From: an uncultured Verrucomicrobiota bacterium
Lineage (GTDB): Bacteria > Verrucomicrobiota > Verrucomicrobiia > Limisphaerales > VHCN01
Direction: 5' to 3'
Assembly (NCBI GenBank): GCA_964589935.1
Contig: CAZPVD010000009.1
Coordinates: 88,969 to 152,968 of the forward strand
Length of the DNA stretch: 64,000 nucleotides
The first letter of the stretch is position 1, and every line of letters begins with the position of its first letter. Made by a program: the position numbers and the translations under genes. The notes under the pieces are model-generated. The model was given only the letters and a program-made list of their open reading frames with translations. It was not told the DNA's origin and made no database searches. Positions 1,746 to 61,546 of this stretch are shown here, piece by piece.

Positions 1746-3332
1746 CTAGCAACCATGCAGTCGGATGTCCACTTGCAGTCCCGACGGCTGGCGGTTGTGC
1801 GCCGAGACGGTGCCCTGGCACGCCTCGACGCACGTCTTCACGATCGCGAGACCGAGGCCGATGCCGCCCGTGTCGCGGCTGCGCGACGCCTCAAGACGGT
1901 AAAACGGATCGAAGATTTGTCGCAGCGCCTTGTCCGGCACGCCGGGACCGCTGTCCGAAACACTGAAAACAATATCCTCGCCCTCGCGTCGCGCGGTGAT
2001 TGCAATCGGCCCGGCCTTCGTGCCGGCGTAGCGGACGGCATTGCGCACGAGGTTCGCAACGCCGCGCGCGAGCAGCTCCGGGTCGGCCATCGCGCGCAAC
2101 GACGGATCCACTTGCACGTGGACATTTGGCATTTCGTTCGCCTCGCGGTTCACGACGCGTCGCGCGAGCTCGGCGAGTTCGACGGGCCGCAGCCGCGTTT
2201 CCTTGGGCTTGAGGCTGGCCTTTGAAAACGCGAGCAACTCGTGCACGAGCGAGGACATCTCCTGGATTTCCTCGCGCAGTTGCTCGACATGCGCGTGCTG
2301 CGATTCGCCGGCGCGTTCCTCAAGAATGCCGAGCGCCATCTGGATGCGCGCGATGGGCGCGCACAGCTCGTGCGCCACGTCGCCGAGGAAGCGCTTCTGC
2401 CCCTTGACCTGCGCGTCGAGGCGCGCGGCCATCCGGTTGATGGACTGGCCGAGGTCACCCAACTCGTCGCGGCGTGTGTCATCCACCCGGCCGTCGAACT
2501 GCCCGTCCGCAATCTCATGCGCGGCGGATTGCGCGCGGCGGACTGTTCTCGTGATGCCGCGCACAAACGGAAGCCAGAACAGCGCGGACACGAGCGCCGC
2601 ACCACCGCCGAGAATCAGCCACGGCTTCGGATCGAACAGCAGCCCGCCGACTCGAATCGAATCCGACGCGATGAGCAGCGCGACCGGCTGGCGCGAGCCG
2701 GGACCCGCAAGCACCGGCACGCGCAGGCCGATCCAGTAGCGCACGGGGTTCGTGGAGCGCACGACAAACTTCGGATAATGCAAGCGGGGTGGAACGCCTT
2801 GATCCTTGCCCTCGCCTCCGCGCGGCGGGCCAAAATCATCCGGGCCGTCCCGGCGCGGCGGACGGTCTTCATCGAATGGCGGTCCTCCGCCACGACGAGG
2901 CGGCGGACCGTCGCGGAAATCGGGAGAGCCATCAAACTGCGGACGTTTTCGTTCCTCCGGCGGTGGGCCATTGGGTCCAGGCGGCGCGCCGGCGGGGCGC
3001 TTGTTGATTTCTTTTTCCACTTCTTCCGGCAGCGCACAGCGCGTGCCCGCGATCTGCGCGCCATCCGGGCGATACATCAGGAAATCCGCGCCATACCGCG
3101 CGCTGTAGCGCGCGAGCAACCGCTCCCAGTCCTCGGGTGGCGAGGCGCGCAGTTCGGTCACGAGGACTTCGGTGAGCGCCTCGATTCGGTCCTGCGCGGC
3201 GCCGAGCAGGATTGAACTGAAGCCCAGCCGGAACTGCTGCGCGACAAAGACCCAGCCCAGCACGACAAGAAGCAGCAGGTTCAAAAAAAACCAACCGAGT
3301 ATTTTTGCGAAGAGCGGAAAGCGTGGCTTCAT
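1746..3332 (-). CDS. Two-component sensor histidine kinase (CpxA/BaeS-like, HAMP-HisKA-HATPase)
   Basis: Two TM segments flank a periplasmic region containing a 70-aa Pro/Gly/Arg-rich stretch. H-box HELCAPIARIQ. C-terminal G-boxes (GGIGLGLAIVK). 4-nt ATGA overlap with the upstream RR gene. Confidence 0.9.
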   Translation of the reverse strand: MKPRFPLFAKILGWFFLNLLLLVVLGWVFVAQQFRLGFSSILLGAAQDRIEALTEVLVTELRASPPEDWERLLARYSARYGADFLMYRPDGAQIAGTRCALPEEVEKEINKRPAGAPPGPNGPPPEERKRPQFDGSPDFRDGPPPRRGGGPPFDEDRPPRRDGPDDFGPPRGGEGKDQGVPPRLHYPKFVVRSTNPVRYWIGLRVPVLAGPGSRQPVALLIASDSIRVGGLLFDPKPWLILGGGAALVSALFWLPFVRGITRTVRRAQSAAHEIADGQFDGRVDDTRRDELGDLGQSINRMAARLDAQVKGQKRFLGDVAHELCAPIARIQMALGILEERAGESQHAHVEQLREEIQEMSSLVHELLAFSKASLKPKETRLRPVELAELARRVVNREANEMPNVHVQVDPSLRAMADPELLARGVANLVRNAVRYAGTKAGPIAITARREGEDIVFSVSDSGPGVPDKALRQIFDPFYRLEASRSRDTGGIGLGLAIVKTCVEACQGTVSAHNRQPSGLQVDIRLHGC

Positions 3333-4219
3333 GCGTCGTCGGGATTGATGAGCATGTAGCCCGCGCTGCGGAGCGTGCGGATGAAGCGCGGGTTCTTCGG
3401 CTCGTCGCCGAGCTTCTTGCGCAACGCGGAGATGTGAACGTCAATCGAGCGGTCGAACACGTCGTAGTTCCGGTCGCGCACCTCGTCGAGCAACTGCTCG
3501 CGCGTCCGCACGCGACCGCGCGCGCGGGCGAGCGAGAGCAGCAGGTCGAACTCAACCGGCGTGAGGTTCAGCGGCTGGTCACCAAGCACGGCTGTGCGCG
3601 TGTTTGGGTTGACGCGCAGCGGGCCGACGACGGCCTCGGGTTCGCCACCGTCGCTGGGAGAATCTTTTGTCGCCGCGGTGAGCGTCGAGCGGCGCGTGAC
3701 AGCGCGCAGGCGCGCGAGCAGTTCGCGCGTGGAAAAAGTTTTCGGCAGATAATCGTCCGCGCCGATTTCGAGGCCGACGATGCGGTCGGCCTCCTCGCCG
3801 CGGCCGGTGAGCATGAGCACGGGCACGTCGGACTTGTGGCGGATTTGCTTGAGCGCCTCGAAGCCGTCGAGGCCGGGCATCATTACGTCGAGGATGATCG
3901 CGTGCCACGGCTCGGAGGTCGCGCGCGCGACGCCGTCCGCGCCGGTGTGGACCATCTCGACGGCGTAGCCGAGCGGCGTGAGATAATCTCGGATGAGCCG
4001 GCAGAGTTTTTTGTCGTCGTCCACGACGAGGATGCGCGTGGACGCCTGTGGCGTTGCAGCGGCGGACGGAGAGGAAAGTTGTCGTGGCGCGGACATTGGA
4101 TTTTCGTGGGCGATCTTCGCAGAATCGGGCGCGTTTGGGAACACCGGCTTCGCCGCCGCTTCGGGCGCGGGCGGCTTGCGGTTTCTTTTTCCAACCGTGA
4201 AGAGCGAGTGCAGGTTCAT
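3329..4219 (-). CDS. OmpR-family response regulator (REC + winged-helix)
   Basis: ILVVDDD...ILDVMMPGLDG...LTGRGEE...DDYLPKTF receiver motifs. C-terminal trans_reg_C (RFIRTLRSAGYML). Has an about 65-aa low-complexity N-terminal extension. Start set at MNLHSL; the ORF could extend to 4309. Confidence 0.85.
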   Translation of the reverse strand: MNLHSLFTVGKRNRKPPAPEAAAKPVFPNAPDSAKIAHENPMSAPRQLSSPSAAATPQASTRILVVDDDKKLCRLIRDYLTPLGYAVEMVHTGADGVARATSEPWHAIILDVMMPGLDGFEALKQIRHKSDVPVLMLTGRGEEADRIVGLEIGADDYLPKTFSTRELLARLRAVTRRSTLTAATKDSPSDGGEPEAVVGPLRVNPNTRTAVLGDQPLNLTPVEFDLLLSLARARGRVRTREQLLDEVRDRNYDVFDRSIDVHISALRKKLGDEPKNPRFIRTLRSAGYMLINPDDA

Positions 4220-4366
4220 GGGCGGAGCCGTCGGGCGAGTTTTCGCGCACTGGAATTCTTCAGCATGGCCGCAATGTAACGACTCGCGACGGGCGGCAGG
4301 CCAGAACATTTACCTCTGCTTAACAATTTCTTCCGCCCTCGAAATAATCTCTTAACAGGCGCGGCG
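4220..4366. promoter_or_regulatory. Divergent promoter region between the TCS operon and the RR-YHYH operon, with direct repeats CTTAACA (x2, about 33 nt apart)
   Basis: Intergenic sequence ...tctgCTTAACAatttcttccgccctcgaaataatctCTTAACAggcg... seen directly. It may be an OmpR-type direct-repeat binding site. No -35/-10 could be assigned with confidence. Confidence 0.3.
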
Positions 4367-4825
4367 TTGAATGTGGCCATGAAAGCTGAATTCAATTCTT
4401 CAAGCCGCCGCTGGCTGGTGGTGGATGACGAGCTCATAATCGCGGAAATGACGGCCCAGCTTCTGCGCCGTCTGAACCGTTCGGTGGAGGTGGTGCCCTT
4501 CAGCAACCCCGTGGAAGCATTGCGCGCCTTCGAGGCGGATCCCGAGTCGGTCGAGATGGTGCTTACCGACTGCAACATGCCGGAGCTGGACGGCATCAAA
4601 TTGACCCGCCTCATCCGGTCGCGCGGGCTGGGCACGAAGGTCGTTCTCATGAGCGCCGATTTTCCCGACTTGACCACGGATGAAATGCGATGGCTTGGAT
4701 TTTCTGCTGCGCTGGCGAAACCCTTTTCACTCGCCGACATTGAAACAGTTCTCCGGTCGGTGCTTTCTTTGGCGCCTCAACCCGACTTCGTGACGGACGG
4801 ACGTCTTCAACTTCAATCCGCATAA
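4367..4825 (+). CDS. Single-domain response regulator (CheY-like receiver), paralog A
   Basis: RRWLVVDDE...VLTDCNMPELDG...ALAKPF; no output domain. Ends 7 nt upstream of the YHYH gene. Paralogous to 8614..9060. Confidence 0.8.
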   Translation: MNVAMKAEFNSSSRRWLVVDDELIIAEMTAQLLRRLNRSVEVVPFSNPVEALRAFEADPESVEMVLTDCNMPELDGIKLTRLIRSRGLGTKVVLMSADFPDLTTDEMRWLGFSAALAKPFSLADIETVLRSVLSLAPQPDFVTDGRLQLQSA

Positions 4826-4832
4826 ATTTTTC

Positions 4833-6602
4833 ATGCGCCTTGCACCTTTTTTATTTCCGAATCGGCCTGTAGCGCTGGTCGTGCTGTTCGGGATGACGTT
4901 CACCGCCGCGGCGCAGACCACTGACCCGCGCGTCGCTTCGTGGCTCACCACTTACTCCGGCAAATACGCGCGCATCTACGGGACCGACGCCGACAAGACT
5001 TCCGGCGCGGCCGTCACCACATGGAGCAACGGCACGCAGACGCAGTCGTTGCCCGCCTACTGCGGCATCCAGGAGGTTTCGTATTCGACGGACTGGGTTT
5101 ATTTCCGCTCAACGGGACTCGGCAGCCACGTCATGGGGCCGTGGTATCTGAACGCCGGCCGCACGACTATTTTTCCGAACCTGCCGAAAAACACGGCGAC
5201 GTTCTACCGCATCCCGCGAAATCCAACCGTGCCTGTGACAAAGACGCTCACGGGCCTCGGTGCCATCGGCTATTTCGTGGACGGCGTGGCGATGTTCGAC
5301 AGCCGCGATGGTTATGTTTGGACAGGCACCACCGAGTCCGGCATGGGCACCGGCTACTGGAATCGCGATGCTTACGTGAACGAAAGCATCACGTTCGATC
5401 CTGGCTACGCGCATCAGGAGAACACCGGCACGCATCATTATCACGCGAACCCCATCGCGTTGCGCTACCTGCTTGGCGACAACGTCACGTTCAACTCTTC
5501 GACGAAGACTTACTCCGAGAATGCCGCCGCGCCGACGAAGCACTCGCCCGTTCTCGGCTGGGTGCGCGACGGTTATCCAGTCTATGGGCCTTACGGCTAC
5601 GCGAGCGCGATGAACTCCAACAGCGGCGTGCGGCGCATGGTCAGCGGTTACGTTGTGCGCAATGGCCAGAACGGCACGCAAAACCTCACCACCGCCGGGC
5701 GCACGACGATTCCGCAATGGGCCGTGCGCGCTTACAGCGTGTCCGCCAGCCAAAGCGGGCCGAGTGTCTCGACCACGTATCCGCTCGGTCGCTACATGGA
5801 GGACAACGATTACCTCGGCGACCTCGGCAAGACGCAGGGCACGGACTTCGACCTCGACGAATATAACGGCCGCTTTTGCGTGACGCCGGAATTTCCCGGC
5901 GGCACTTACGCTTACTTCGTCGCCATCAACGCCAGCGGCATTCCTGTGTTTCCCTACAACATCGGCCGCGCCTTTTACGGCAACCCCACCGGCGCGATGG
6001 TCGCCTCGCTCACCGAAACAGTGACGACGAATTTTGTTGGCGGTGCAAGCTCGCCCCTCACGGTCAATTCAACCGCAGTCAGCGGCGGCACGGTCACGCT
6101 TGTATGGAGTTCTGTTGAAGGCGGCAGCTACCGCGTTGAATCCGCCTCGGCGCTCACGAACTGGACAACGAAGGTTGCGAGCGTCAGCGCGGCGACCAAC
6201 GCCGTCGCAACGCAATCCGCCACGAGCACGAGCGGCACGAAAGAATTCTACCGCGTCGCCCTTACCGCCGTCGCCAGCTATGACACCGCAGGCAGCGGCG
6301 GTGGCGGTGGCGGCGGCGGCACGAGCGCCGTTGCGCCGGGAGGCAGCGCGAGCCGCGGCACATCAGTCACGGTGACCATCACGCTTCCGACTTCGCCGCC
6401 GCAGCCACCGGCGAATCTCGTGCCGACCAGCGTCACGCTTGCGGGCACGATCACCGGCACCGCCATTTCGCGACCGAGCGCCGGCACGGTGCAGGCCACC
6501 TTTGTGATCCCTTCGAATGCGTCCACTGGCGCGCAAAACGTCGTGGTCGTGTTCAGCCCCGCGCCGACCTACACGCTGACGGGAGGCTTCACGATCAATT
6601 GA
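4833..6602 (+). CDS. Secreted YHYH-motif protein (PF14240-like) with C-terminal FN3/Ig-like domains and a poly-Gly linker
   Basis: Signal peptide. Motif NTGTHHYHANP. FN3-like segment (LTVNSTAVSGGTVTLVWSSVEGGSYRVESASALTNW). GGGGGGGG run. C-terminal beta-rich Ig-like domain. Family assignment is from motif memory, not a search. Confidence 0.7.
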   Translation: MRLAPFLFPNRPVALVVLFGMTFTAAAQTTDPRVASWLTTYSGKYARIYGTDADKTSGAAVTTWSNGTQTQSLPAYCGIQEVSYSTDWVYFRSTGLGSHVMGPWYLNAGRTTIFPNLPKNTATFYRIPRNPTVPVTKTLTGLGAIGYFVDGVAMFDSRDGYVWTGTTESGMGTGYWNRDAYVNESITFDPGYAHQENTGTHHYHANPIALRYLLGDNVTFNSSTKTYSENAAAPTKHSPVLGWVRDGYPVYGPYGYASAMNSNSGVRRMVSGYVVRNGQNGTQNLTTAGRTTIPQWAVRAYSVSASQSGPSVSTTYPLGRYMEDNDYLGDLGKTQGTDFDLDEYNGRFCVTPEFPGGTYAYFVAINASGIPVFPYNIGRAFYGNPTGAMVASLTETVTTNFVGGASSPLTVNSTAVSGGTVTLVWSSVEGGSYRVESASALTNWTTKVASVSAATNAVATQSATSTSGTKEFYRVALTAVASYDTAGSGGGGGGGGTSAVAPGGSASRGTSVTVTITLPTSPPQPPANLVPTSVTLAGTITGTAISRPSAGTVQATFVIPSNASTGAQNVVVVFSPAPTYTLTGGFTIN

Positions 6603-6625
6603 TCCGCCGCCGAAGCCGCGCCCCA

Positions 6626-8536
6626 ATGAAACCAATTTCAAATCACAAGCAACGGTTTGCGCGGGCGCGCGCCGCCGGAGCGCTGTGTGCGGGGCTTTTC
6701 TTCGTCGCGGTCAATACGAGTGTTGCAGTTACGCTGAATGTCCGCGTCGCTGCCCGCTTCAACGACGCGCCACTCGTGCTTGATTCACTCGTTAACACGA
6801 CCGCGGCGGGACAGGCCGTTTCCGTGACGCGGTTGGATTTTCTGTTGTCAAACTTTGCCCTGCATGAAGCCGGCGGCGGTTGGACGGAGCGCACCAACAC
6901 GTTTGCCTATGTCAGCGTGCGCGAGGGGCGGACGACGTTTTCCGTGGAGAATGTTCCAGCGGGAAGTTACGACCGCATCCGTTTTCACGTCGGGCTAGAA
7001 CCCGCGATCAATCACAGCGACCCCGCGAAGTTTCCCGCCGCGCATCCGCTCAACGCCGTCTTGAACGGCCTGCATTGGAATTGGCAGGGTGGCTACGTGT
7101 TTCTCGCGATGGAGGGCCGCTGGCGCCTGCCGGACGGCTCGCTGGGCGGCTACTCTCACCACATCGCGAATGACGCGCGACTGATGACTGTGTCGCTGCC
7201 CGTCGCTCTCTCGCTGCCCCGCGATGCCGCGCTCGATCTGGCCTTGCACGTGGATCGCATCTGGAGCGGCAAGTCCGCGATCAAACTCAGCCCTGAAGCC
7301 GTCTCGACGCATTCACGCGAAGGCGACGTGCTCGCGGCGCAACTGGCTGAGAACATTCAGGCCGCATTCGCCGTCGGCGTTGCCGAGCCGCGCGTCGCGG
7401 GAAAGTCAGACGAGCCATTTGAGTTTCGTCCGCCGCCGCCCCGGTTCGGAAGACCTCCGCCACTTCCGCCACCGTTCGCGCGGGAACGCGAACCGAGCGT
7501 TGCGTTGCCCAAAGGCACGACGCCTTATCGCCTGACGTTCGGGCGGCAGTTTCCAATTCCCGATTTGCCGCGCGACAATCCGCTGACGGAGCAAGGCGTC
7601 GCGCTCGGGCGACAGTTGTTCAACGATCCGATCCTTTCGATCAACGGCAAGCAATCATGCTCGTCGTGCCATCAAGCGGACGCGGCTTTCACCGACAAGG
7701 GTCGCGCCGCGAGCCTCGGTGCCGAGGGACAGGCCGGAACGCGCAACGCGATGCCGCTCTTCAACCTCGCGTGGAACCGCTCGTTTTTCTGGGACGGTCG
7801 CGCACGCACGCTGCGCGAGCAGGTGCTCATGCCGATCCAAAATCCCATCGAGATGCACGAATCGCTGACGAACGTGGTAAGAAAGCTTGAAAACTCAGCG
7901 TCAAAAAACTCCACAAATTATCCCGCGCTCTTTGCGCGCGCGTTCGGCTCGCAAGAGATCGCGGCCGAGCGCATCGCAATGGCGCTGGAGCAATTTCTCG
8001 TCACGCTCGTCAGCGACGATTCCAGGTTCGACCGCGTGATGCAGGGACGCGAGCAGCCGAGCGAGGATGAGCGTCGCGGCTTCGAGCTGTTCAACACCGA
8101 ATTCGATCCGCGGCGAGGCTTGTTTGGCGCGGATTGTTTTCACTGTCACGGCGGACCGTTCTTCACCAACCACCGTTTCGCCAACAACGGCCTCGATGCG
8201 GAGCCGCGCGACACGGGCCGGCTTGAAGTGACCAAGAATGAGCATGACCGTGGGCTGTTCGCCGTGCCGTCATTGCGCAACGTGGCGTTGACCGCGCCCT
8301 ATATGCACGACGGACGCTTCAAGACGCTCGAAGAAGTCGTCGAGCACTACAGCACCGGTGTGCGGCGCAGCGCGACGCTCGACCCGAACCTCGCGAAGCA
8401 TCCCGTGCAGGGTCTCCAGCTTTCCGTGGAGGACAAGCGCGCTCTCATGGCGTTCTTGCGCATGCTCACGGACGAATCGCTGTCGCAACGCAACATGGCG
8501 AAGTCCGATCCTGATTTCCGCTCCAGTGGGCGGTAG
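6626..8536 (+). CDS. Fusion protein: N-terminal domain of unknown function (about 300 aa) + C-terminal di-heme cytochrome c peroxidase (CCP/MauG family)
   Basis: Two CxxCH heme motifs (CSSCHQAD; CFHCHGGPFF). CCP-like FNDPILS, PSLRNVALTAPYMHDG. Pro-rich linker FEFRPPPPRFGRPPPLPPPF. Signal peptide. The 4-nt overlap (ATGA) is with the long ORF-track start at 6599; the annotated start 6626 lies 24 nt downstream of the upstream stop. Confidence 0.8.
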   Translation: MKPISNHKQRFARARAAGALCAGLFFVAVNTSVAVTLNVRVAARFNDAPLVLDSLVNTTAAGQAVSVTRLDFLLSNFALHEAGGGWTERTNTFAYVSVREGRTTFSVENVPAGSYDRIRFHVGLEPAINHSDPAKFPAAHPLNAVLNGLHWNWQGGYVFLAMEGRWRLPDGSLGGYSHHIANDARLMTVSLPVALSLPRDAALDLALHVDRIWSGKSAIKLSPEAVSTHSREGDVLAAQLAENIQAAFAVGVAEPRVAGKSDEPFEFRPPPPRFGRPPPLPPPFAREREPSVALPKGTTPYRLTFGRQFPIPDLPRDNPLTEQGVALGRQLFNDPILSINGKQSCSSCHQADAAFTDKGRAASLGAEGQAGTRNAMPLFNLAWNRSFFWDGRARTLREQVLMPIQNPIEMHESLTNVVRKLENSASKNSTNYPALFARAFGSQEIAAERIAMALEQFLVTLVSDDSRFDRVMQGREQPSEDERRGFELFNTEFDPRRGLFGADCFHCHGGPFFTNHRFANNGLDAEPRDTGRLEVTKNEHDRGLFAVPSLRNVALTAPYMHDGRFKTLEEVVEHYSTGVRRSATLDPNLAKHPVQGLQLSVEDKRALMAFLRMLTDESLSQRNMAKSDPDFRSSGR

Positions 8537-8539
8537 GCG

Positions 8540-8576
8540 GGCTGGTGTGAAAGTTGTGTGTCCACCGGCCCGCCTG
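8540..8576 (+). terminator. Hairpin immediately after the CCP-fusion stop (GCGGGCTGGTG...CCACCGGCCCGC)
   Basis: Imperfect inverted repeat seen in the sequence, followed by an A/T-poor tail. Could be a partial terminator or an mRNA processing site. Confidence 0.3.
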
Positions 8577-8613
8577 AACCTTTGATGACAATGCGCAATC
8601 AACAAAACAAATC

Positions 8614-9060
8614 ATGAGTGCACCGTTTTACACCGAACCCACACGGCGCTGGATGGTCGTGGACGACGAAGAGACTTACCTGCAAATCATGGTGCTGGTT
8701 CTGGAATGTCTTGGCGGCGCCGAAGTCCGCGGGTTCACCTCGCCTCGTGCGGCACTGGAGGCGCTCGCCGAGGCGCCGGGTGAATTTGAACTCATCGTGA
8801 CCGACCGTCGAATGCCGGAGATTGACGGCCTCGAATTCGCGCAGCTCATCCGCGCGTGGGTGCCGGATGCAAAGGTCATTCTCGCCACAGCGGATTGTTC
8901 CGGTCTGTCAGACGAACTAGCGCGGCGGCTCGGCCTTTCTGCGGTCCTGGCAAAACCCTTCAAGCCGGGCGCTCTCGAAACGGCTGTCCGCGCCGCACTC
9001 GCGGAGCGGGCCGGAGACGGTTACGCTGCCCGGAACAGCACTCTGGCTTGCGCGGCATAA
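8614..9060 (+). CDS. Single-domain response regulator (CheY-like receiver), paralog B
   Basis: RRWMVVDDE...IVTDRRMPEIDG...VLAKPF. Alignable over its full length with 4367..4825. Confidence 0.8.
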   Translation: MSAPFYTEPTRRWMVVDDEETYLQIMVLVLECLGGAEVRGFTSPRAALEALAEAPGEFELIVTDRRMPEIDGLEFAQLIRAWVPDAKVILATADCSGLSDELARRLGLSAVLAKPFKPGALETAVRAALAERAGDGYAARNSTLACAA

Positions 9061-9095
9061 CCGGGACAAATGGGCTAACAGCGACCGAAATCACA

Positions 9096-11102
9096 ATGAA
9101 CCTCATCAGCAAATCGTGCCCCTCTCTGTCCGCAACCGCACAACGGAACGGCGGCCTCGCGCTCCTCATCGCAACAGCCATCACGGGACTAACTCATTTT
9201 GCGGAGGCACACGTCATCGGCGACGCCGCACATGATGGCCGCGAAGCATCTTATGACTTCAACGTGCGCCCGCCGACGCGGGTTCTTCTGCGCGCTCCCG
9301 CCGATGGTTCGGTGATTCTTGCCCGAAGCAACGATTCCGATGATGACGGGCGTTCCGCAGGCGCGTGTGGCGCTCCTGCGATCAAGGCCGATGTGATGGC
9401 AAAGGCGTTTGCCGCATTCGCGCCGCGCGTGAAGACGCACTACGACGAAAGGTATCTCTTTGTCGAATCCGACGGCTTGCCCACGCACAACATGATGGTG
9501 GGCATCCGCAACTGGCAGCAGCAGGTGCCGCTGCCGCAGGCGTATCGCGGTGGGAACGCCTTTCGCCTTCCGCTTGAGCCGGTGCTCGCGGCGAACCCCG
9601 TGTTGGCGCGGAACAACCTTTTCCGCGGCGCGATTGCGCTGGCCGTGAACGGTGTGCCGATTTTCAACGCGCTCAATAATCGTGGCGAGGATTCGTTCAA
9701 GATCGGCGAACTCGACCAGTGGGGCGGCCACTGCGGGCGCGCGGACGATTATCATTATCACGCTGCGCCGCTCCACTTGCAGGAAGCGGCCGGCGCAGGG
9801 CGGCCCATCGCGTTTGCGCTCGACGGTTTTCCGATTTACGGGCTGACCGAGCCGGACGGCGCGCCGGTCGCGAAACTCGACGAACTCAACGGCCACTTCG
9901 ATAAAATCGGAAACTATCACTACCACGGCACGAAGGAATATCCCTATATCAACGGCGGCCTGCGCGGCGAAGTCACCGTGCGCGACGGTCAGGTGGACCC
10001 GCAGCCGCATGCACAGCCGGTTCGCGCGGCGGGCCAACCGTTGCGCGGCGCGGTCATCACAGATTTTTCCTCACCGTCACCGGACCGGCATCGCCTCATC
10101 TACGCGCTGAACGGGCGGACGCACACGATTGATTACGCTGTGGCGGACGGAGCAGTTTCGTTCGCATTCGACGGCGGCGCGGGCCAGACGTTTGCGCAAA
10201 ACACAGAGCAGCGAAGCACGGAGCGGCCGCTCGACCCGTTGTATGTCCGGCCGCAATTTGCCGCGGCAACGGCGGGCACGAATCAGGTTTCCATCACCGT
10301 CGAGGGGGAGTTTCGCGTGATTCGAGCGAACGGTTTGCCCGATCACGTGACGGGCCAGTTCCCCGGACGCAACAACCCGAACCGCATTTCGGCGCAGAGC
10401 TACGACTTCCGTGTGCCACTCAAGCCGCAAGTCGCTGCGAAAACGACCGCGCTCGGAATGTATCCGTTCGGCGTGGCGGTCAACGGCGTGGTGTTCGACC
10501 CCGGCGCGGCGGAGTGGTGGCGCGGCGACCGCGACTGGCAATACGAGCCGCTCTTTCTCGAAGGCAGACTCGGCGCGGACCAGAGCAACGCGCACGTCCA
10601 GCCGACCGGTGCGTATCACTATCATGCCATCCCGACGGCGTTGCTTGACAGGCTCACCGGCGGCAGGCCCATGCCCGCGCTCCTCGGCTGGGCGGCGGAC
10701 GGCTTTCCGATTTACTGCCCGTGGGATTACAGCGACGCGAAGAGCACGAACAGCGTGCTGAAGAAAATGAAATCATCCTACCGCGTGAAACAGGGCGTGC
10801 GATCCGGCGGCCCCGGCGGAAAATACGACGGCACGTTCCTCGCCGATTTTCAATACGTCGCCGGCTCGGGCGATCTCGACGAATGCAACGGCCGTTTCGG
10901 CATCACACGCGAATTTCCCGAAGGCACGTATCATTACATTCTGACCGAGGACTGGCCGTTCATCCCGCGGTTGTTTCGGGGCACGCCGAGTTCGAGCTTC
11001 TTCCGCCACGGTCCGCCGGGCGGACAGCGTTTCGGCGGGCCGGGTGGACCCAAAGGCCCGCCGTCGAAGGGGTTTCCACCGCCGCGTCCGTTCAATCCGT
11101 GA
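9096..11102 (+). CDS. Secreted protein with three to four YHYH repeats (PF14240-like) and a Pro/Gly-rich C-terminal tail
   Basis: DYHYHAAP, NYHYHGTKEYPY, AYHYHAIP, GTYHYILTED. Signal/anchor MNLISKSCPSLSATAQRNGGLALLIATAITGL. Tail GPPGGQRFGGPGGPKGPPSKGFPPPRPFNP. The start was moved from the 8856 ORF start to an internal ATG because the upstream part overlaps the RR gene. Confidence 0.7.
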   Translation: MNLISKSCPSLSATAQRNGGLALLIATAITGLTHFAEAHVIGDAAHDGREASYDFNVRPPTRVLLRAPADGSVILARSNDSDDDGRSAGACGAPAIKADVMAKAFAAFAPRVKTHYDERYLFVESDGLPTHNMMVGIRNWQQQVPLPQAYRGGNAFRLPLEPVLAANPVLARNNLFRGAIALAVNGVPIFNALNNRGEDSFKIGELDQWGGHCGRADDYHYHAAPLHLQEAAGAGRPIAFALDGFPIYGLTEPDGAPVAKLDELNGHFDKIGNYHYHGTKEYPYINGGLRGEVTVRDGQVDPQPHAQPVRAAGQPLRGAVITDFSSPSPDRHRLIYALNGRTHTIDYAVADGAVSFAFDGGAGQTFAQNTEQRSTERPLDPLYVRPQFAAATAGTNQVSITVEGEFRVIRANGLPDHVTGQFPGRNNPNRISAQSYDFRVPLKPQVAAKTTALGMYPFGVAVNGVVFDPGAAEWWRGDRDWQYEPLFLEGRLGADQSNAHVQPTGAYHYHAIPTALLDRLTGGRPMPALLGWAADGFPIYCPWDYSDAKSTNSVLKKMKSSYRVKQGVRSGGPGGKYDGTFLADFQYVAGSGDLDECNGRFGITREFPEGTYHYILTEDWPFIPRLFRGTPSSSFFRHGPPGGQRFGGPGGPKGPPSKGFPPPRPFNP

Positions 11103-11232
11103 GGTCGCGGCTCGTCTGACTTCGGCGAAACAAATCGAACCTTGCCCGTTCACCAGGAGCGGGAGTAAATGTGCCGCGACGCGCGTAGAGCCGCGCACTG
11201 TGGAAAGGCGTTCACGCGGGATATGATGGGTT

Positions 11233-12864
11233 ATGGACGACGTGACTCTTCCGAGAGATCCGAATCAGCCGCAGGCCGCGCCTGCGGTTCCCGTTGCGGG
11301 CGCGACTCCCGATAGTGCTGGCGGCGAGGGGAGGTCCGGCACGTTTGGGCGCGACCTTTCCGGCGCGACGCTTGGAGATTACCGGCTCGTGCGGAAAATT
11401 GCCGAGGGTGGGATGGGCGAAGTTTATGAGGCCATTCAACTCAACCTCGACCGGCGGGTCGCGTTGAAGCTCGTCACCGACCGCTTTGCGTCGCAGTCGC
11501 AGTTTCTCGTCCGCTTCGAGCGCGAGGCCAAGGCCGCGGCGGCGCTGAACCATCCGAACATCGTCCAGGTTTATGACTTCGGGAAGGCGGAGGGACTGTT
11601 CTACCTCGTGATGGAATTCGTGGACGGCGTGGATTTGGCCGAATACGTGAAGGGCCGCGGAAAACTTTCCGTCACCGAGGCGCTGGGGTTTATCGAGCAG
11701 GCGGCCCGTGGCCTGAACGCAGCCGCCGCGCAGGCGATCATCCATCGCGACGTCAAGCCCGCGAATCTCCTGCTCACCAACGACGGCATCGTCAAGGTGT
11801 CCGACCTTGGTCTTGCGAAAAAGCTCACCGACGAGTCCGAAGTGACGATGACGAGTGCCTGTCTGGGTTCGCCGCACTTCCTTGCGCCCGAGCAGGCCGC
11901 CGACGCGCGCCGCGTGGATCATCGCGCCGACATTTATTCGCTGGGCATCACGCTGTTGTTTCTGCTCACGGGCAAACATCCGTTCGACGGCGGTTCGGCC
12001 CTCACTGTGCTGCTCGCGCACGCGCAGAAGCCGCTGCCGACGGGCGCGGAACTCGGCGTGGCTTTGCCGGACGCGGTCGAATCGCTGATCCGCCGAATGT
12101 CGGCGAAAAATCCAGAAGATCGCTATCAGGATTACGCCTCGCTGTTCGCCGACGTGGCGCGCGTGAAAGCGGGCTTTGAGCCTGCCGAGAAGTTCGCGGC
12201 GACACCCGCTGCAAATCAGCGCCGCCACAAGTTGAAAGTGGCGCTTGCTTCGGTCGCAGGTGTCGCCGTCGCGGGAGCGTTGATTTCGATGTTCTGGCCG
12301 AAACCGCCGCTGCCGGCAAACCAGCCACAGCAATCCGCGCCGGTTGATCGTCGATTTGATGGAGGGCAGCCATTCGGGAGGCGTCCGGGCCCGGATCAAT
12401 TCGATGACCCACCCGGTTTTCAGGGCGGCAAGGAAGGGCCACCGGGACGCAGGCCGATGCGCCTGCCGTTTCCGCCGCCGCCGCAGAAGGAATTCAACCC
12501 GCTTCCCGACGGGCCGATTCCGGCCATGATTGCGATGGCCGACCGATACGCCGCGACGAACGCGCAGGAGTGCGTCAAAATCATTGACCGCTACTTTCAA
12601 ATCCAGCACAAGGCCGCGGGCACACAGTGGGAGGAGGAGATTGACAGGAAGCTGTCGCTCGCGATCGAAGCGCACAAAAAAGCGACGCAAGAGATCATCA
12701 ACAACCTGCAAGCCCGCATGACGAGATTCCTGCGCGAAAACAAGCCGCAAGATGCCTTCGATGTCTGGCGGGAATTCCCGACACGTCTGCGGACACCTGA
12801 AGCCGACCAGCAGATCGGGCAAATCCTCCAGCGCGAGCTGCCTCCAGAGTTCCAGCCGAATTAG
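11233..12864 (+). CDS. Eukaryotic-type Ser/Thr protein kinase with a single TM and a periplasmic Pro-rich/helical tail
   Basis: GxGxxG-like loop (EGGMGEVYEA), VALK, HRDVKPANLL, DLG, APE motifs. TM VALASVAGVAVAGALISMFW. Then RRFDGGQPFGRRPGPDQFDDPPGF... Confidence 0.88.
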   Translation: MDDVTLPRDPNQPQAAPAVPVAGATPDSAGGEGRSGTFGRDLSGATLGDYRLVRKIAEGGMGEVYEAIQLNLDRRVALKLVTDRFASQSQFLVRFEREAKAAAALNHPNIVQVYDFGKAEGLFYLVMEFVDGVDLAEYVKGRGKLSVTEALGFIEQAARGLNAAAAQAIIHRDVKPANLLLTNDGIVKVSDLGLAKKLTDESEVTMTSACLGSPHFLAPEQAADARRVDHRADIYSLGITLLFLLTGKHPFDGGSALTVLLAHAQKPLPTGAELGVALPDAVESLIRRMSAKNPEDRYQDYASLFADVARVKAGFEPAEKFAATPAANQRRHKLKVALASVAGVAVAGALISMFWPKPPLPANQPQQSAPVDRRFDGGQPFGRRPGPDQFDDPPGFQGGKEGPPGRRPMRLPFPPPPQKEFNPLPDGPIPAMIAMADRYAATNAQECVKIIDRYFQIQHKAAGTQWEEEIDRKLSLAIEAHKKATQEIINNLQARMTRFLRENKPQDAFDVWREFPTRLRTPEADQQIGQILQRELPPEFQPN

Positions 12865-12896
12865 CGGATTGACCCACGGAGCGCCTGCCTGCTGGC

Positions 12897-13676
12897 TTAC
12901 TTGAGTGACTTCGGCGGTTTTATGGATGGAGGCGGCTCCTTTGCTTTTGCCTGCGCGGCCGTCCATCGCGATTCCCAATCTGCCCACGATGAAGCCCACG
13001 CTTCACCAGCGAAATTTTTCCTCGCCGTCGGAAGGAGTTCTTCGAACGCCTTAAGTTCGTGCTGAGAAGTTTTCTTGTCGCCCCACTTCAGCGCGGATTC
13101 GAGGAGGTTCAGCCGGTTCTCAGGAAAATCCGGCGCGACTTCGACAGCCTTCGTCAAATACATGCGGGCCTTGCTTCTGCTGCCGACGCTCGCGGGCCAG
13201 CCGGGCGCGTCGCGATAGAGCAGGCCGAGGCAGCGATCCGGGCCGGCGTGATCAAAGGCGGCGTCGAGTTCGCGCGTGAGTTTGAACTGCCGCTCCATGT
13301 CATCCACGAGCGGCAGAGCGCCAAGCATCTTGGTGCGCGCGAGCTGGCCAAGATTCATTGCTAGATAATAGTGTCCGGCAGCGAGTTTCGGCTCACGGGT
13401 AAGGAGCGGACGGCACGCGCCGATGCCCTCGACCGCGAGCGTGGCGCGCTGCGTGTCGTTGGCCGCGAATTCCGCCCGGTCGAAGCACGCTCGTCCAAAC
13501 TGCCACGCAGCCTCGGCGTTGTTCGTGTCCGCGAGAAAGCGCACGCGCGCCTGCTGGTAGCTTTTTTCGGCAAAGGCGATGAATTGAGCCGGGCCGGCGG
13601 GCGTCTGGGTTTGCGCCTGAATTGCAGCAACACCCGCCGCGAGCATGGCCGCGGCCAGCACGCAAAACCGCCTCAT
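12897..13676 (-). CDS. Secreted TPR-like repeat protein
   Basis: Signal peptide MRRFCVLAAAMLAAGVAAIQA. Helical repeat composition (AEAAWQFGRACFDRAEF; HYYLAMNLGQLA). No enzymatic motifs. Confidence 0.55.
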   Translation of the reverse strand: MRRFCVLAAAMLAAGVAAIQAQTQTPAGPAQFIAFAEKSYQQARVRFLADTNNAEAAWQFGRACFDRAEFAANDTQRATLAVEGIGACRPLLTREPKLAAGHYYLAMNLGQLARTKMLGALPLVDDMERQFKLTRELDAAFDHAGPDRCLGLLYRDAPGWPASVGSRSKARMYLTKAVEVAPDFPENRLNLLESALKWGDKKTSQHELKAFEELLPTARKNFAGEAWASSWADWESRWTAAQAKAKEPPPSIKPPKSLK

Positions 13677-13727
13677 TGGCGGGGAATTATGTGTTGCCAT
13701 GAGATTGTTCATCCCTATAGTGGCCAA

Positions 13728-13931
13728 GTGCGATTGAATCGGTTACAAGTTTTGCTGGCAATCCTCGTGTTCGCCCTCGTGGCGGGGACGGGTTGCGGCG
13801 GCTTTAGCACAAGTCAGTCCGTGTCTCCGGCGATGTTCTTTATACCGGGCCTGCGGATTCAAAACGTCCCCCGTCCACCCGCCCCGATCACACCCGTATC
13901 CGCCCCCGCAGGCGAACCGGTTCAGTCCTGA
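13728..13931 (+). CDS. Possible small secreted/lipoprotein ORF (about 67 aa) immediately upstream of hpnH
   Basis: Candidate GTG start. Hydrophobic N-terminus LQVLLAILVFALVAGTGC followed by a Pro-rich tail. Part of the 13371..13931 track ORF. Weak evidence; coding potential not verified. Confidence 0.25.
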   Translation: MRLNRLQVLLAILVFALVAGTGCGGFSTSQSVSPAMFFIPGLRIQNVPRPPAPITPVSAPAGEPVQS

Positions 13932-13945
13932 TTCAACTTTCAACT

Positions 13946-15373
13946 ATGCGCTTCCCCCTTGCGCTGACGGTCAAAATCGCCCGTCACATCATCAAACACA
14001 AACTTCGCAAGACGCCGAAGTTTGCCATGGTTTTGCAGCTCGAACCGTTGCACACGTGCAACCTAACCTGCACCGGCTGCGGACGCATCCGCGAATACTC
14101 CACTTCGCTCAAGGACATGGTGCCGTTGGAGCAGTGCCTCGCCGCCGCGCAGGATTGCGATGCGCCGATGGTCTCGATTTGCGGCGGTGAGCCGCTGATT
14201 TATCCGAAGATTGAGGAGCTGGTCGCCGGGCTGCGCGAGCAGGGCCGCATTATTTACATCTGCACGAACGCAATGTTCATGCGGAAGAAGATGCGCGACT
14301 ACATGGCCGCCGTCTTCACGCCGGAGATGGAAGCGAAGCTCCAGCAGCTCGTCGCCGAGAAGCTCGTCACCGAGAAAGAAGCCGAGGCCATCCGCAACGC
14401 CGATGCCGCCGCGAAGGCGAAAGTCGTCATCAAGCCCAGCAAGTGGATGTATTGGAATGTCCATGTGGACGGCTTGGAATACACGCACGACCTCATCGTC
14501 GAGCGCGAGGGCGTCTTCAAGGAATGCGTCGCCGCCATCAAGATGGCGAAGATTCTCGGTTACCAGACTGCGACGAACACGACCGTTTACAAGGAGACCG
14601 ACGTGCAGGAGATCGAGGACATGTTCAAGTTCCTCTCCTCGCTCGACGTGGACGGCCACACGATTTCCCCCGGCTACGACTACGACGCCGCGAAGAAGGA
14701 CATGGTCAAGCGCCTCGGTCGCGACCCGAAGGAATTCTTCCTCACGCGCGACATGACGCGCGCGAAGTTTAAGGACATCGAGAAGTGGGGCAAGGCATTC
14801 ACCATCTTCGGCACGCCGGTTTATCAGGAGTTCCTCGCCGGCAAACGCGAGCTGACCTGCACCGCGTGGGCCATCCCGACTTACAACGTGAAGGGCTGGA
14901 AAGCGCCGTGCTATCTGATGACCGACGGCCATTACCCGACCTACGCCGAGATGCTCGGCACCGTGAAGTGGGAGAAATACGGCGTGGTGGACGGCATCGC
15001 GCGCGACTCGCGCTGCGAGCATTGCATGGTCCATTGCGGCTACGATCCCAGCGGGGCGTTGAGCACCAAGCCGCGCGACACGTGGATCAACATGAAATAC
15101 AACTTTGGCGCGAAGCCGAAGCCGTATGCCGCCAGCGCCGACTTGGAGAAACGCGCGTTCAACGGCGTGACCATCGGCAAAGGCCACCTCGCCGAGGCCA
15201 AGGCTGCCATCAACCCCGCCGCCAGCGCGCGCGGTGCCTTTTCCCGCAAGGAAGAAGAACACGACCACGCTCCCGCCACAGGCGGCTCGTGCGGCTCTGG
15301 TGACACTTCCCAACGCGACGATTTGATCGCGAAAATTCGTGACGCGAAGAAGATTGAAGTGAAGGCCGAGTAG
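13946..15373 (+). CDS. hpnH: Adenosylhopane synthase, radical SAM (HpnH), with an internal insertion and C-terminal extension
   Basis: CNLTCTGCGRI radical-SAM motif. N-terminus (KFAMVLQLEPLHTCNL...PMVSICGGEPL...YICTNA) closely matches remembered HpnH sequences. At 475 aa it is about 90 aa longer than typical HpnH. Confidence 0.75.
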   Translation: MRFPLALTVKIARHIIKHKLRKTPKFAMVLQLEPLHTCNLTCTGCGRIREYSTSLKDMVPLEQCLAAAQDCDAPMVSICGGEPLIYPKIEELVAGLREQGRIIYICTNAMFMRKKMRDYMAAVFTPEMEAKLQQLVAEKLVTEKEAEAIRNADAAAKAKVVIKPSKWMYWNVHVDGLEYTHDLIVEREGVFKECVAAIKMAKILGYQTATNTTVYKETDVQEIEDMFKFLSSLDVDGHTISPGYDYDAAKKDMVKRLGRDPKEFFLTRDMTRAKFKDIEKWGKAFTIFGTPVYQEFLAGKRELTCTAWAIPTYNVKGWKAPCYLMTDGHYPTYAEMLGTVKWEKYGVVDGIARDSRCEHCMVHCGYDPSGALSTKPRDTWINMKYNFGAKPKPYAASADLEKRAFNGVTIGKGHLAEAKAAINPAASARGAFSRKEEEHDHAPATGGSCGSGDTSQRDDLIAKIRDAKKIEVKAE

Positions 15374-15407
15374 TCAACCTTCACGACGCGGTTTCCCCAA
15401 ACGAGCA

Positions 15408-16883
15408 ATGAGCAAAACACTGTTTCTTTCACCGCCGTCCTTCGACGGATTCGATGGCGGCGCTGGCGCGCGCTATCAGGCCCGGCGCGAAGTCACGAGC
15501 TACTGGTATCCGACCTGGCTCGCGCAACCCGCCGCCCTCGTGCCCGGCAGCAAACTCCTCGATTGCCCGCCGCACCACATTGACATGCCGCAGTGCCTCG
15601 CCATCGCGAAGGACTTCGACCACGTCATCATCAACACCAGCACGCCGTCGCTGAAAAACGACTGCAAGGTCGCCGAGGCCATCAAGCAGCAGAAGCCCGC
15701 CACCAAGATCGGCTTCGTCGGCGCGCACACGATGGTGCTGCCCGCCGAGACGCTCAAGGCCTCGTGGGCGATTGACTGGGTCGGCCGCAAGGAGTTCGAC
15801 TTCACCTGCAAGGAGGTCGCCGAGGGCCGTGACCTCGCGACCATTGCCGGCCTTTCCTACAAGGACGCCGACGGCAAGATCAAACACAACCCCGAGCGCG
15901 AGATGATCGCGAACATGGACACGCTTCCGTGGGTTGCCGACGTTTACAAGCGCGACCTACAGATCGAGAAGTATTTCATCGGCTACCTCCAGCATCCCTA
16001 CGTGAGCATGTATACGGGGCGCGGCTGTCCGGCGCAGTGCAGCTTCTGCCTCTGGCCGCAGACCATCGGCGGGCACAAATATCGCGTCCGCTCCGCCGAC
16101 AACGTCGCCGCCGAGATGGCCTACATGAAGAAAATCTTCCCGCAGGTGAAGGAATTCTTCTTCGATGACGACACCTTCACCGCGAACCTCCCGCGCGCCC
16201 GCGAGATCGCGAAGAAACTCGGTCCGCTCGGCGTGAACTGGAGCTGCAACAGCCGCGCCAACCTCGACTACGACACCATCAAGAGTTTCAAGGACAACGG
16301 CCTGCGCCTCTTTCTCGTCGGCTACGAGAGCGGCAACGACGAGACCCTCACGCGCATCAAGAAGGGCGTCACCACCGCCGAGATGCGCCGCTTCACCAAG
16401 GACTGCCACAAGGCCGGCGTCGTCATCCACGGCACCTTCATCCTCGGCCTGCCTGTTGAGACGCGCGAGACCATCGAGCAGACCATCCGCTTCGCGCAGG
16501 AGCTGGACGTCTTCTCCCTGCAGGTCAGCCTCGCCGCGCCGTATCCGGGCACGGAACTTTACGACCAGGCCAAGATGAATGGCTGGTTCACCAAGAAGGA
16601 CAAGACCGACCTCGTCGAGGGCGACGGCTTCCAGCAGAGCACGCTCGAATATCCCGGCCTGAACAAGGACGAGATTTTCGCGTCACTCGAGGAGTTCTAC
16701 CACCGCTACTACTTCAACAAGTTCGGCAGGCTCCTCATCCCGCGCGGCCCCTCGTGGCGCATCTTCAAGTCCATGCTCCAAGACAAGGATGTCTTCGTGC
16801 GCCGCTGCCGCGAAGGCTTTGAGTTCTTCAAGAGCCTGCGCCAGCGCAACGACGACCTCGCCGCGCAAAAAGCCGCCGCGTAA
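15408..16883 (+). CDS. hpnJ: B12-binding radical SAM protein, hopanoid-associated (HpnJ-like)
   Basis: N-terminal B12-binding region (LFLSPPSFDGFDGGAGARYQARREVTSYWYPTWLAQPAA). Radical SAM YTGRGCPAQCSFCLWPQ. Sits immediately downstream of hpnH. Symbol assigned from context plus remembered similarity. Confidence 0.6.
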   Translation: MSKTLFLSPPSFDGFDGGAGARYQARREVTSYWYPTWLAQPAALVPGSKLLDCPPHHIDMPQCLAIAKDFDHVIINTSTPSLKNDCKVAEAIKQQKPATKIGFVGAHTMVLPAETLKASWAIDWVGRKEFDFTCKEVAEGRDLATIAGLSYKDADGKIKHNPEREMIANMDTLPWVADVYKRDLQIEKYFIGYLQHPYVSMYTGRGCPAQCSFCLWPQTIGGHKYRVRSADNVAAEMAYMKKIFPQVKEFFFDDDTFTANLPRAREIAKKLGPLGVNWSCNSRANLDYDTIKSFKDNGLRLFLVGYESGNDETLTRIKKGVTTAEMRRFTKDCHKAGVVIHGTFILGLPVETRETIEQTIRFAQELDVFSLQVSLAAPYPGTELYDQAKMNGWFTKKDKTDLVEGDGFQQSTLEYPGLNKDEIFASLEEFYHRYYFNKFGRLLIPRGPSWRIFKSMLQDKDVFVRRCREGFEFFKSLRQRNDDLAAQKAAA

Positions 16884-39332: not shown

Positions 39333-39728
39333 TTGCATGAGGGCGGGGCATTCCCTAAATTGAGTCCGGTGAAGCTGCATTTTGAAAACCTGCCGCCCTC
39401 GCTCGCAGGCCAGCGTGAGACACTGGCGCGCTGCCTCGAAGCCATGAACGCCGCCCAGCCGCTGCGCAAGGTCATCCTCTTCGGCTCCCACGCGCGCGGC
39501 GAGGCCCGCCCGGACAGCGACGTGGATTTGTGCCTCGTGGCCGACGGGGCGGAGCGGCAATACGACACGGCGACGACATGGCTGCGGGCCGTCTTTGATT
39601 TGCGCCCCAAGCCGTCGTTCACGCTCATTCCCGTCACCCCCGGCCGACTACGGGAAAAGCAGGCCATCGGTGATTATTTCTTCAAGACCGTTCTCGAGGA
39701 AGGAGTCCTGATTGCCGCGGAAAACTGA
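39333..39728 (+). CDS. Nucleotidyltransferase (MNT) component of an MNT/HEPN toxin-antitoxin pair
   Basis: FGSHARGEARPDSDVDL = G-S-x9-D-x-D minimal nucleotidyltransferase motif. Overlaps the HEPN gene by 17 nt. The true start may be an internal GTG/ATG. Confidence 0.75.
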   Translation: MHEGGAFPKLSPVKLHFENLPPSLAGQRETLARCLEAMNAAQPLRKVILFGSHARGEARPDSDVDLCLVADGAERQYDTATTWLRAVFDLRPKPSFTLIPVTPGRLREKQAIGDYFFKTVLEEGVLIAAEN

Positions 39729-43799: not shown

Positions 43800-43873
43800 C
43801 CCTGAGAGGGCTGCGGCGGACGATGGCAATTTCCACTTGGAATGACAAGCTGGAAGCGGACGGGGACTTTACC

Positions 43874-45217: not shown

Positions 45218-45338
45218 TCCGTGGGGCGAGTCTCGCAACTTTCCGCGAAAACACAAGCGCGGCGTGAACGCGCCTGTGGCATTGACTTTTCACCCGCAAG
45301 CGCGGAACTTCCGCACAAGCCCGAACCAAGCTCCGCCT

Positions 45339-61543: not shown

Positions 61544-61546
61544 GGG

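Follow-up and report, generated by a model that had tools for sequence, protein, structure and literature searches.

Disorder in the bacterial periplasm has been little studied, and sensor kinases are usually viewed through their folded domains. The segments of TonB, TolA and RcsF are extracytoplasmic, Pro-rich, charged and either disordered or polyproline II (PPII)-like, and their length matters above their sequence. In TonB and TolA they are periplasm-spanning linkers and in RcsF a disordered linker (for papers on such linkers, see PMC12204202, PMC7098700, PMC9907809). Here we describe four Pro/Gly/Arg-rich segments encoded in a 64-kb stretch of DNA from an uncultured Verrucomicrobiota bacterium (the window), all of them in one gene cluster at 1.7-13.7 kb: a loop in a CpxA-like histidine kinase (HK), a stalk in a Ser/Thr kinase (STK), a linker stretch in a fusion of MbnP with a dihaem peroxidase (MbnH-like, CCP; hereafter MbnP-CCP) and the C-terminal tail of YHYH2, a protein with two YHYH domains. 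Like the segments of TonB, TolA and RcsF, they are Pro-rich, charged, extracytoplasmic stretches of predicted disorder in proteins of the envelope that signal or transduce force. They differ in lying in a sensor loop, a kinase stalk, an enzyme linker and free C-terminal tails, in being composed of P/G/R plus D and F rather than the Glu-Pro/Lys-Pro repeats of TonB, and in recurring across several unrelated proteins of one cluster; unlike the TonB and TolA linkers, they are not known to span the periplasm.

A polyproline motif in the periplasmic domain of EnvZ is needed for MzrA binding and co-evolves with a small accessory protein; polyproline (polyP) motifs are reported from more than half of the E. 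coli HKs (Motz & Jung 2018, PMC6023141). We found no literature on Pro-rich loops in periplasmic sensor domains beyond EnvZ. The window HK is likewise an OmpR-family HK with a polyproline element in its periplasmic domain, but where EnvZ has a short VVPPA within a folded domain, the loop of the HK and its relatives is disordered and hypervariable (0-215 amino acids, aa), and this window has no accessory protein gene. The HK and its response regulator (RR) also resemble the CpxA-CpxR-CpxP system: among solved structures, the HK core comes closest to CpxA (4BIU, E 1.6e-35), the RR is nearest to CpxR, the periplasmic sensor is PAS-like, and one relative of the HK (P0028, locus L085) stands beside a divergent LTXXQ (CpxP/Spy family) gene. 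Other homologues of the HK have EF-hand proteins or the YHYH/MbnP-CCP operon in place of this gene, which is absent from the window; here the divergent operon encodes YHYH and MbnP-MbnH proteins, not CpxP. Neither window protein scores as a curated equivalog, the top NCBIfam matches being CpxA for the HK (192 bits against a cut-off of 486) and CpxR for the RR (200 against 341), both far under the cut-off. A Pro-rich loop is not known from CpxA of E. coli.

CutF is a small DUF2946 protein in which stalling at a C-terminal Pro-rich sequence melts a stem-loop over the next ribosome-binding site (RBS) (10.1101/2025.02.05.636593). YHYH2 is similar in being predicted to be secreted, in having PPP near its C-terminus, in its metal-related envelope context and in the presence of a gene downstream. 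It is, however, a 668-aa two-domain enzyme rather than a DUF2946 protein, and no RBS-masking structure follows it (fold z 0.03); with terminator and promoter scans also at shuffle level, a CutF-like attenuator downstream of YHYH2 was rejected. Eukaryotic sticker-and-spacer regions of the RGG/FG type combine Gly/Pro spacers with Arg and an aromatic residue (Phe) in a setting of mixed charge, and their composition is conserved without alignment. The segments described here may be likened to them in spacers, Arg plus Phe and mixed charge, but are bacterial, periplasmic, far richer in Pro and short (40-80 aa). None of the TonB/TolA/RcsF, EnvZ or CutF cases, as given in the sources cited, describes a style of disorder common to the sensors, enzymes and accessory proteins of one cluster.

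A sequence-only reading of the window had drawn attention to the four proteins by quoting peptides from each. All of these are present (Table 1); the end coordinate given with them, 12463, truncates the second STK peptide. When some 50 likely genes of the window (20,000 aa) were scanned with a sliding frame of 25 aa for P+G+R >= 15 with P >= 5, matches were found in these four proteins only. Exported and envelope proteins of the same DNA that have no such segment include four sulfatases, PSCyt/PSD1, DUF1501 and DUF1800 proteins, a 1,020-aa NHL protein, a secretin, pilus parts and an outer-membrane protein barrel. The segments contain 30% P, 16% G, 12% R, 7% D and 8% F, against 6, 8, 7, 6 and 4% in the window proteome. 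Disorder prediction had been proposed as a check, and by charge-hydropathy all four are classed as disordered. The HK loop, with a fraction of charged residues (FCR) of 0.35 and a net charge per residue (NCPR) of about 0, is a well-mixed polyampholyte. The segments are compositionally biased regions of low complexity, with a strong residue bias and predicted to be unstructured.

Predicted topology agrees with the extracytoplasmic side to which all four had been assigned. A hydrophobicity scan places the transmembrane (TM) helices of the HK at residues 11-29 and 239-257, with the loop between them, and the single TM helix of the STK at 336-354, with the stalk after it, and both segments therefore lie outside the cytoplasm. 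In MbnP-CCP the scan finds an N-terminal hydrophobic anchor at residues 28-46, upstream of the linker. The likely N-terminus of YHYH2 (MNLISKS...) has a hydrophobic stretch resembling a signal peptide, and the tail comes after the last YHYH domain; in the longer 748-aa open reading frame (ORF) of YHYH2 the scan did not flag the signal-like stretch.

GC-rich codon bias had been allowed for as a trivial cause, but this is contradicted by the loss of Ala, the gain of Phe and the use of less GC-rich codons. Ala, the residue most favoured by GC and the commonest in the proteins of the window (11%), is depleted 3.5-fold in the segments, to 3.1%, whereas Phe, with its TTY codons, stands at 8.3% against 4.3%. 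The other hydrophobic residues L, I, V, M, W and Y have nearly gone (19 Phe versus 11 others; odds ratio 10.8, p 6e-10). Synonymous codons also depart from the genome norm: GAT supplies 62% versus 27%, CGC 36% versus 67% and GGC 44% versus 70%, and GAT, CGT, GGA, CCA and TTT are over-used. An origin by DNA slippage was rejected, as Tandem Repeats Finder and a direct-repeat search gave only weak chance matches of 14-20 nt. Neither GC bias nor simple DNA repeats explain the segments.

Neither a recurring FDG..F..RRPGP..FD(D/E) pattern nor a short linear motif common to the four proteins, be it a docking site, a sorting signal or a ligand mimic, was supported: the segments show no positional similarity beyond composition. 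Pairwise Smith-Waterman scores of the six segment pairs show no excess over 1,000 composition-preserving shuffles (z -0.2 to 1.6). The strict form put forward for a scan, FDG-x(2,4)-F-x(0,3)-RR-x-GP, has one match in 1,225 proteins (1,026 from the window and related loci plus 199 HK homologues), and this is the STK itself. The bare 'FDG' occurs in 70 of the 1,026 proteins, among other places in cytoplasmic regions (kinase and HAMP domains) of the HK and STK, and was found three times in 171 loops of the family of the window HK (HK-A), with 2.1 expected; being unenriched in these homologous loops and common in unrelated or cytoplasmic contexts, it was rejected as a motif core. The 'FDG...FDD' of the STK is missing in the orthologues of four other loci (L014, L053, L047 and L007). 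'FDG' followed within eight residues by P[GP]P is limited to 6 of the 1,026 proteins, all sensors of this locus type (the window HK, the window STK and four orthologues of a second kinase family, HK-B), because Pro-rich loops are themselves confined to sensors. When the segments are scored with a profile built from the HK-B loop, 'PPFDGPPPDQFPDD', the window HK loop exceeds its shuffles at p 0.02, and the other three give p 0.14-0.22 (0.22, 0.14 and 0.17). As four tests were made, the value for the HK is not significant and the match is suggestive at most; with the HK alone reaching it, the profile was rejected as a hidden common motif. What the four segments have in common is a compositional grammar of Pro runs, Gly and balanced Arg and Asp/Glu, in which Phe is almost the sole hydrophobic residue. 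They are independent instances of a module-wide compositional style rather than copies of a motif, and unrelated protein families acquired them independently.

The module in question was defined by comparison with other genomes. A scan of a genome collection with the MbnP-CCP protein returned 80 loci (these and other loci are referred to here by L numbers), the best-matching from Pedosphaera-like and other Verrucomicrobiota (44-58% identity), followed by Bacteroidota. In tblastn searches with the window proteins, the conserved core is the HK and RR divergent from YHYH1 and MbnP-CCP, optionally followed by a receiver, a YHYH2-like protein and an STK. Many loci of Verrucomicrobiota have the pair of YHYH1 and MbnP-CCP. 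Two, L014 and L053, encode all of these genes together with an HK of the same family, and the synteny of HK/RR versus YHYH/MbnP-CCP is kept in these two and in L086. The cluster of YHYH proteins and MbnP-MbnH fusion (4833-11102 in the window; loci L004-L051, L053 and L086) usually has a two-component system of OmpR type next to it in divergent orientation, and downstream of MbnP-CCP there is often a gene for a small secreted protein with tandem EF-hands; a search of all six frames of the window found no EF-hand protein. The cluster is a conserved verrucomicrobial envelope module of a CpxA/CpxR-like system, YHYH proteins and an MbnP-MbnH fusion, with the STK and, in other genomes, small secreted proteins of EF-hand or LTXXQ type as optional parts. 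YHYH is a predicted metal-dependent hydrolase (PMC7824862), and we found nothing on it in the literature beyond this prediction.

A cross-locus scan of 1,025 called proteins in 84 sequences found 33 segments. The sole outsider is translation factor IF-2 in L005, the rest being in HKs of the loci, the STK, YHYH proteins, a CCP variant and the small secreted tandem EF-hand proteins. In sequences of GC > 0.52, segments occur in 27 of 116 module-family proteins, in none of 158 other predicted exported or membrane proteins and in 1 of 304 remaining proteins (Fisher p about 1e-11, holding at looser thresholds), and the enrichment spans at least five unrelated families. The sequence-only reading was thus right that the recurrence is not coincidence. 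Loci with 54-58% GC also carry segments, and the likeness between segments of different families is greater inside one genome than across genomes (permutation p 0.028). Divergent from HK-A genes there are an EF-hand-like small periplasmic protein with a P/G/R tail in L001, EF-hand-like and other small periplasmic proteins with P/G/R tails in L084, the LTXXQ/CpxP-family protein beside P0028 in L085, also with a P/G/R tail, and an operon of EF-hand, YHYH and MbnP-CCP genes in L086. A single compositional style of disorder runs through the periplasmic portions of an entire conserved cluster, from sensor kinases of two kinds and a Ser/Thr kinase to secreted enzymes and small Ca-binding proteins.

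Table 1. Segments, quoted peptides and genes of the cluster, with positions in the window
Feature	Position	Strand	Residues	Remarks
HK disordered Pro/Gly/Arg-rich polyampholyte loop	2772-3002	-	111-187	Inserted in PAS-like periplasmic sensor domain
MbnP-CCP Pro/Arg/Phe-rich linker stretch	7388-7510	+	264-304	Between MbnP and dihaem peroxidase domains
YHYH2 C-terminal Pro/Gly-rich tail	10977-11099	+	Last 41
STK juxtamembrane Pro-rich stalk	12298-12516	+	356-428	Between TM helix and conserved helical C-terminal domain
HK peptide	2823-2942	-	131-170
MbnP-CCP peptide	7418-7477	+	274-293
YHYH2 peptide	11010-11099	+	719-748
STK peptide, first part	12349-12420	+	373-396
STK peptide, second part	12436-12483	+	402-417
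CpxA-like HK	1746-3332	-		Pfam
OmpR/CpxR-like RR	3329-4309	-		Pfam
CpxA-like HK + OmpR/CpxR-like RR pair	1746-4309	-		Pfam; divergent from YHYH/MbnP-CCP operon
Receiver-only RR	4367-4825	+		Divergent from HK/RR
YHYH1	4833-6602	+
MbnP-dihaem peroxidase (MbnH-like, CCP) fusion	6599-8536	+		Pfam MbnP 45-223, CCP_MauG 332-485
Second receiver-only RR	8614-9060	+
YHYH2, two YHYH domains	8856-11102	+		ORF; likely start 9096
STK	11233-12864	+
Divergent set: receiver RR, YHYH1, MbnP-CCP, receiver RR, YHYH2, STK	4367-12864	+
BstC-like TPR protein	12897-13727	-		NCBIfam match below cut-off

For the HK, AlphaFold2 (AF2), run with an alignment of 26 sequences, predicts with confidence a PAS-like domain in the periplasm, made up of helices at residues 38-80, strands at 83-95, a helix at 103-110 and strands at 189-223 (the first at 189-194). 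Residues 111-187 break this domain, with predicted local distance difference test (pLDDT) values of 43-64. In 199 HK-A homologues, 49 from a word search and 150 representatives from an exhaustive profile search, the loop lies at one position with a median length of 45 aa, that of the window ranking 25th in length, and it is kept in the L014 and L053 orthologues. The pooled composition is 24% P, 13% R, 13% G, 6.5% A, 6% E, 5% D, 5% L and 3% F. Compared with within-loop shuffles, 171 of these loops are enriched in PP (z 12), GPP (z 9.7), PPP (z 8), PP[RP][RDEN][GD] (53 observed, 13 expected, z 10.6), DF (z 4.1), [RD]F (z 3.5) and F[GRD] (z 3.2), and the 'DGPPPRRG' and 'RPPRRDG' of the window HK loop match this grammar. 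Present throughout the family, this insertion is disordered and hypervariable, and its grammar is a loose 'GPPP-R-x-G'. Three HK-A representatives (P0134, P0168 and P0114) have inserts of 180-215 aa within the Pro-rich loop, with helical segments and a canonical EF-hand loop sequence (e.g. ADTNRDGQLNLAEL). The support for an EF-hand is weak (Pfam EF-hand_5 E 2e-4 in P0168; blastp to the stand-alone proteins E 0.003-0.05). These kinases look like cases of the accessory EF-hand protein fused into the sensor.

Most YHYH/MbnP-CCP loci use HK-B as their sensor. Its Pro-rich loop is at a different topological position and is partly conserved, as 'PPFDGPPPDQFPDD', in close relatives. Homology of the HK-A and HK-B sensor domains was rejected as the cause of both loops (hhalign probability 1.2%), and HK-B acquired its loop independently of HK-A.

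The STK stalk of five orthologues is 71-98 aa long with 22-30% Pro, and the sequences are unrelated; with six Phe in the window against 0-1 in the orthologues, richness in Phe is limited to the window lineage. An AF2 model of the STK C-terminus made from the single sequence, of low confidence (mean pLDDT 53), shows the stalk as coil followed by helices. A word-indexed protein search with the extracytoplasmic region (aa 330-543) gave no match, and the STK orthologues were found through syntenic loci only. At 72 aa, the aligned MbnP-CCP linker of the window is longer than that of most of the 54 orthologues (about 49 aa); the window protein has an insertion of about 23 aa, EPFEFRPPPPRFGRPPPLPPPF, that none of the 54 has. 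The YHYH2 tail is kept in the L014, L053 and L010 orthologues and is shorter in L047; alone among the segments, these tails open with a family-specific, semi-conserved sequence, 'GTPDSSFFRHGPGP.RFG', after which the G/P remainder varies. Among orthologues the presence, position and residue bias of the segments, and in the STK stalk the length, are conserved while the sequence turns over, the MbnP-CCP insertion excepted. In other lineages similar segments occupy different places, such as a C-terminal tail, 'PPPREGGPFAFDPPPPPPPRR', on a stand-alone CCP protein (L055, 8703-9983) and a Gly/Pro/Phe/Arg-rich internal region of about 120 aa in a YHYH1 protein (L033, 2672-5008).

The reading that we prefer, and to which we give an even chance, is that the four stretches are disordered polyampholyte segments in the periplasmic part of one envelope module, serving as extended tethers or loops with weak contacts. 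Their style consists of PPII-prone Pro runs and Gly with intermixed Arg and Asp/Glu, Phe being nearly the sole hydrophobic residue and usually beside a charged residue or Gly; as tethers or loops they would be extended and flexible. The STK stalk would raise the sensor domain off the membrane, the MbnP-CCP linker would keep its two domains apart, and the HK loop would project from the PAS-like domain, in the connector past its first two strands. With a closed loop and a free tail among the four, and similar tails on partner proteins, the segments probably make contacts as well, since loops and free tails connect nothing. These contacts would be weak and multivalent, electrostatic and of the Arg-Phe type, and would keep periplasmic enzymes, accessory proteins and sensors near one another or near an envelope polymer.

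Several points weigh against these tethers with contacts. The mechanism is inferred from anatomy, and the enrichment in module families is a statistic inflated by the shared ancestry of the loci. Homologous loci of low-GC Bacteroidota have no such segments, so genome composition probably shapes which residues are used, and the likeness of segments within a genome could come from mutational bias rather than co-evolution. The MbnP-CCP insertion, being unique to its lineage, may be neutral. In L084 a further type of HK likewise carries a periplasmic loop rich in Pro, and the habit may therefore be general to verrucomicrobial periplasmic sensors and not a property of this module.

The segments might instead be purely passive spacers, entropic linkers or rulers of the TonB/TolA/RcsF type with no common partner or contacts, an explanation that we find somewhat unlikely. 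It would suit the STK stalk, which conserves its length while its sequence drifts freely, the place of the MbnP-CCP stretch between two domains and the lack of a positional motif. The free tail of YHYH2 and the HK loop, self-closed within one domain, are however not linkers, EF-hand and LTXXQ partners have terminal tails of the same style, and the enrichment of Phe, without other hydrophobic residues and beside charged residues or Gly, is needless in a spacer. That the sensors and enzymes share a discrete short linear motif (FDG..F..RRPGP..FDD or similar) which serves in docking or sorting or mimics a ligand is largely refuted, and we leave it only a slim chance. The six sensors with FDG..P[GP]P would speak for it, as would the HK-B profile score of the window HK loop, but the first follows from the confinement of Pro-rich loops to sensors and the second fails after four tests, the other segments scoring lower still. 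Pair scores at shuffle level, a strict pattern seen once, the loss of FDG in STK orthologues and its ordinary frequency in HK-A loops all count against a motif.

It is very unlikely that the segments are a neutral by-product, unconstrained low-complexity sequence arising from GC-rich mutational bias or replication slippage, even though they are hypervariable in length and sequence, the MbnP-CCP insertion is lineage-specific, low-GC Bacteroidota homologues go without segments and the codons of P, G and R are GC-rich. Against neutrality, the segments are poor in Ala but retain Phe and Asp, their synonymous sites are lower in GC than the genome is, tandem and direct DNA repeats are lacking, the 158 other exported proteins of the same DNA have no segments and loci of 54-58% GC do have them; furthermore, presence and position are conserved over distances of 40-55% identity, and the HK-A loops show a k-mer grammar beyond composition. 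Translational control has hardly any probability. Here polyproline ribosome stalling would make expression of the four proteins dependent on EF-P, and the C-terminal PPP of YHYH2, like the CutF stalling peptide, would control the downstream STK gene. Nine of the 13 PPP motifs of the window do fall in these four proteins, the PPP of YHYH2 lies five residues before the stop codon in L014 and L053 as it does in the window, and there are precedents in CutF (10.1101/2025.02.05.636593) and in the polyP motifs of E. coli HKs (PMC6023141). But shuffled versions fold as well as the RNA between YHYH2 and the STK does, YHYH2 is a large enzyme rather than a small leader peptide, polyP stalling in EnvZ is reported to have barely changed the protein level (PMC6023141), and the Gly/Arg/Phe/Asp composition and the extracytoplasmic restriction would be left unexplained.

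The preferred reading of weakly contacting tethers and loops can be taken further, to a point that we regard as distinctly unlikely, by supposing that P/G/R(+Phe/Asp) disordered segments are a shared interaction code of a Cpx-like envelope-stress module. The HK loop may then be a built-in pseudo-client that resembles the tails of EF-hand, LTXXQ and YHYH proteins, and the tailed proteins may be those that the HK system controls or listens to. Signalling may proceed by competition or co-assembly between disordered segments, possibly tuned by Ca2+, ionic strength or the capacity of prolyl isomerases and proteases, and the HK-A kinases with an EF-hand in the loop may be fused versions of the partnership. 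If the segments do make contacts, they offer a tractable route to signal perception by a verrucomicrobial Cpx-like system and to the organisation of the unexplained YHYH and MbnP-MbnH proteins. If they do not, they are a worked example of a 'motif' that catches the eye in Pro-rich sequence and is composition only; such a composition need not be a GC artefact.

Some other features of the cluster and its neighbours deserve mention. About 90 aa precede the receiver in the RR ORF at 3329-4309 (Pfam receiver from residue 93), and translation probably begins further downstream than the first in-frame start codon. YHYH1 has, in its C-terminal part, a (GGC)10 run at 6291-6320, which encodes an eight-Gly stretch (SGGGGGGGGT) and is another kind of low-complexity linker in the same cluster. 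Antisense to the STK gene and longer than it is a 595-aa ORF (11212-12999, minus strand), which misled a simple longest-ORF gene caller, as did its counterparts in L014 and L047; it was rejected as a gene and is a high-GC artefact. At 12897-16883 the BstC-like TPR protein adjoins a radical-SAM/DUF3463 protein and a B12-binding radical-SAM enzyme. BstC is a sterol transporter outer-membrane protein, and radical-SAM/DUF3463 is the domain pair of the hopanoid enzyme HpnH; these genes may form a hopanoid- or sterol-lipid-related group.

Elsewhere in the window, a beta-carbonic anhydrase (57884-58918) has a C-terminal GYF_2 domain with a Pfam score of 24.0 bits against a cut-off of 25.8; GYF domains bind Pro-rich peptides in eukaryotes. 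Two adjacent paralogues at 42429-45256 each have a receiver domain fused to a metallo-beta-lactamase-fold domain, and a nucleotidyltransferase/HEPN pair is found at 39333-40113. The gyrA and gyrB genes (58925-63868) have a PIN toxin and Phd-YefM antitoxin pair between them, at 61547-62358.

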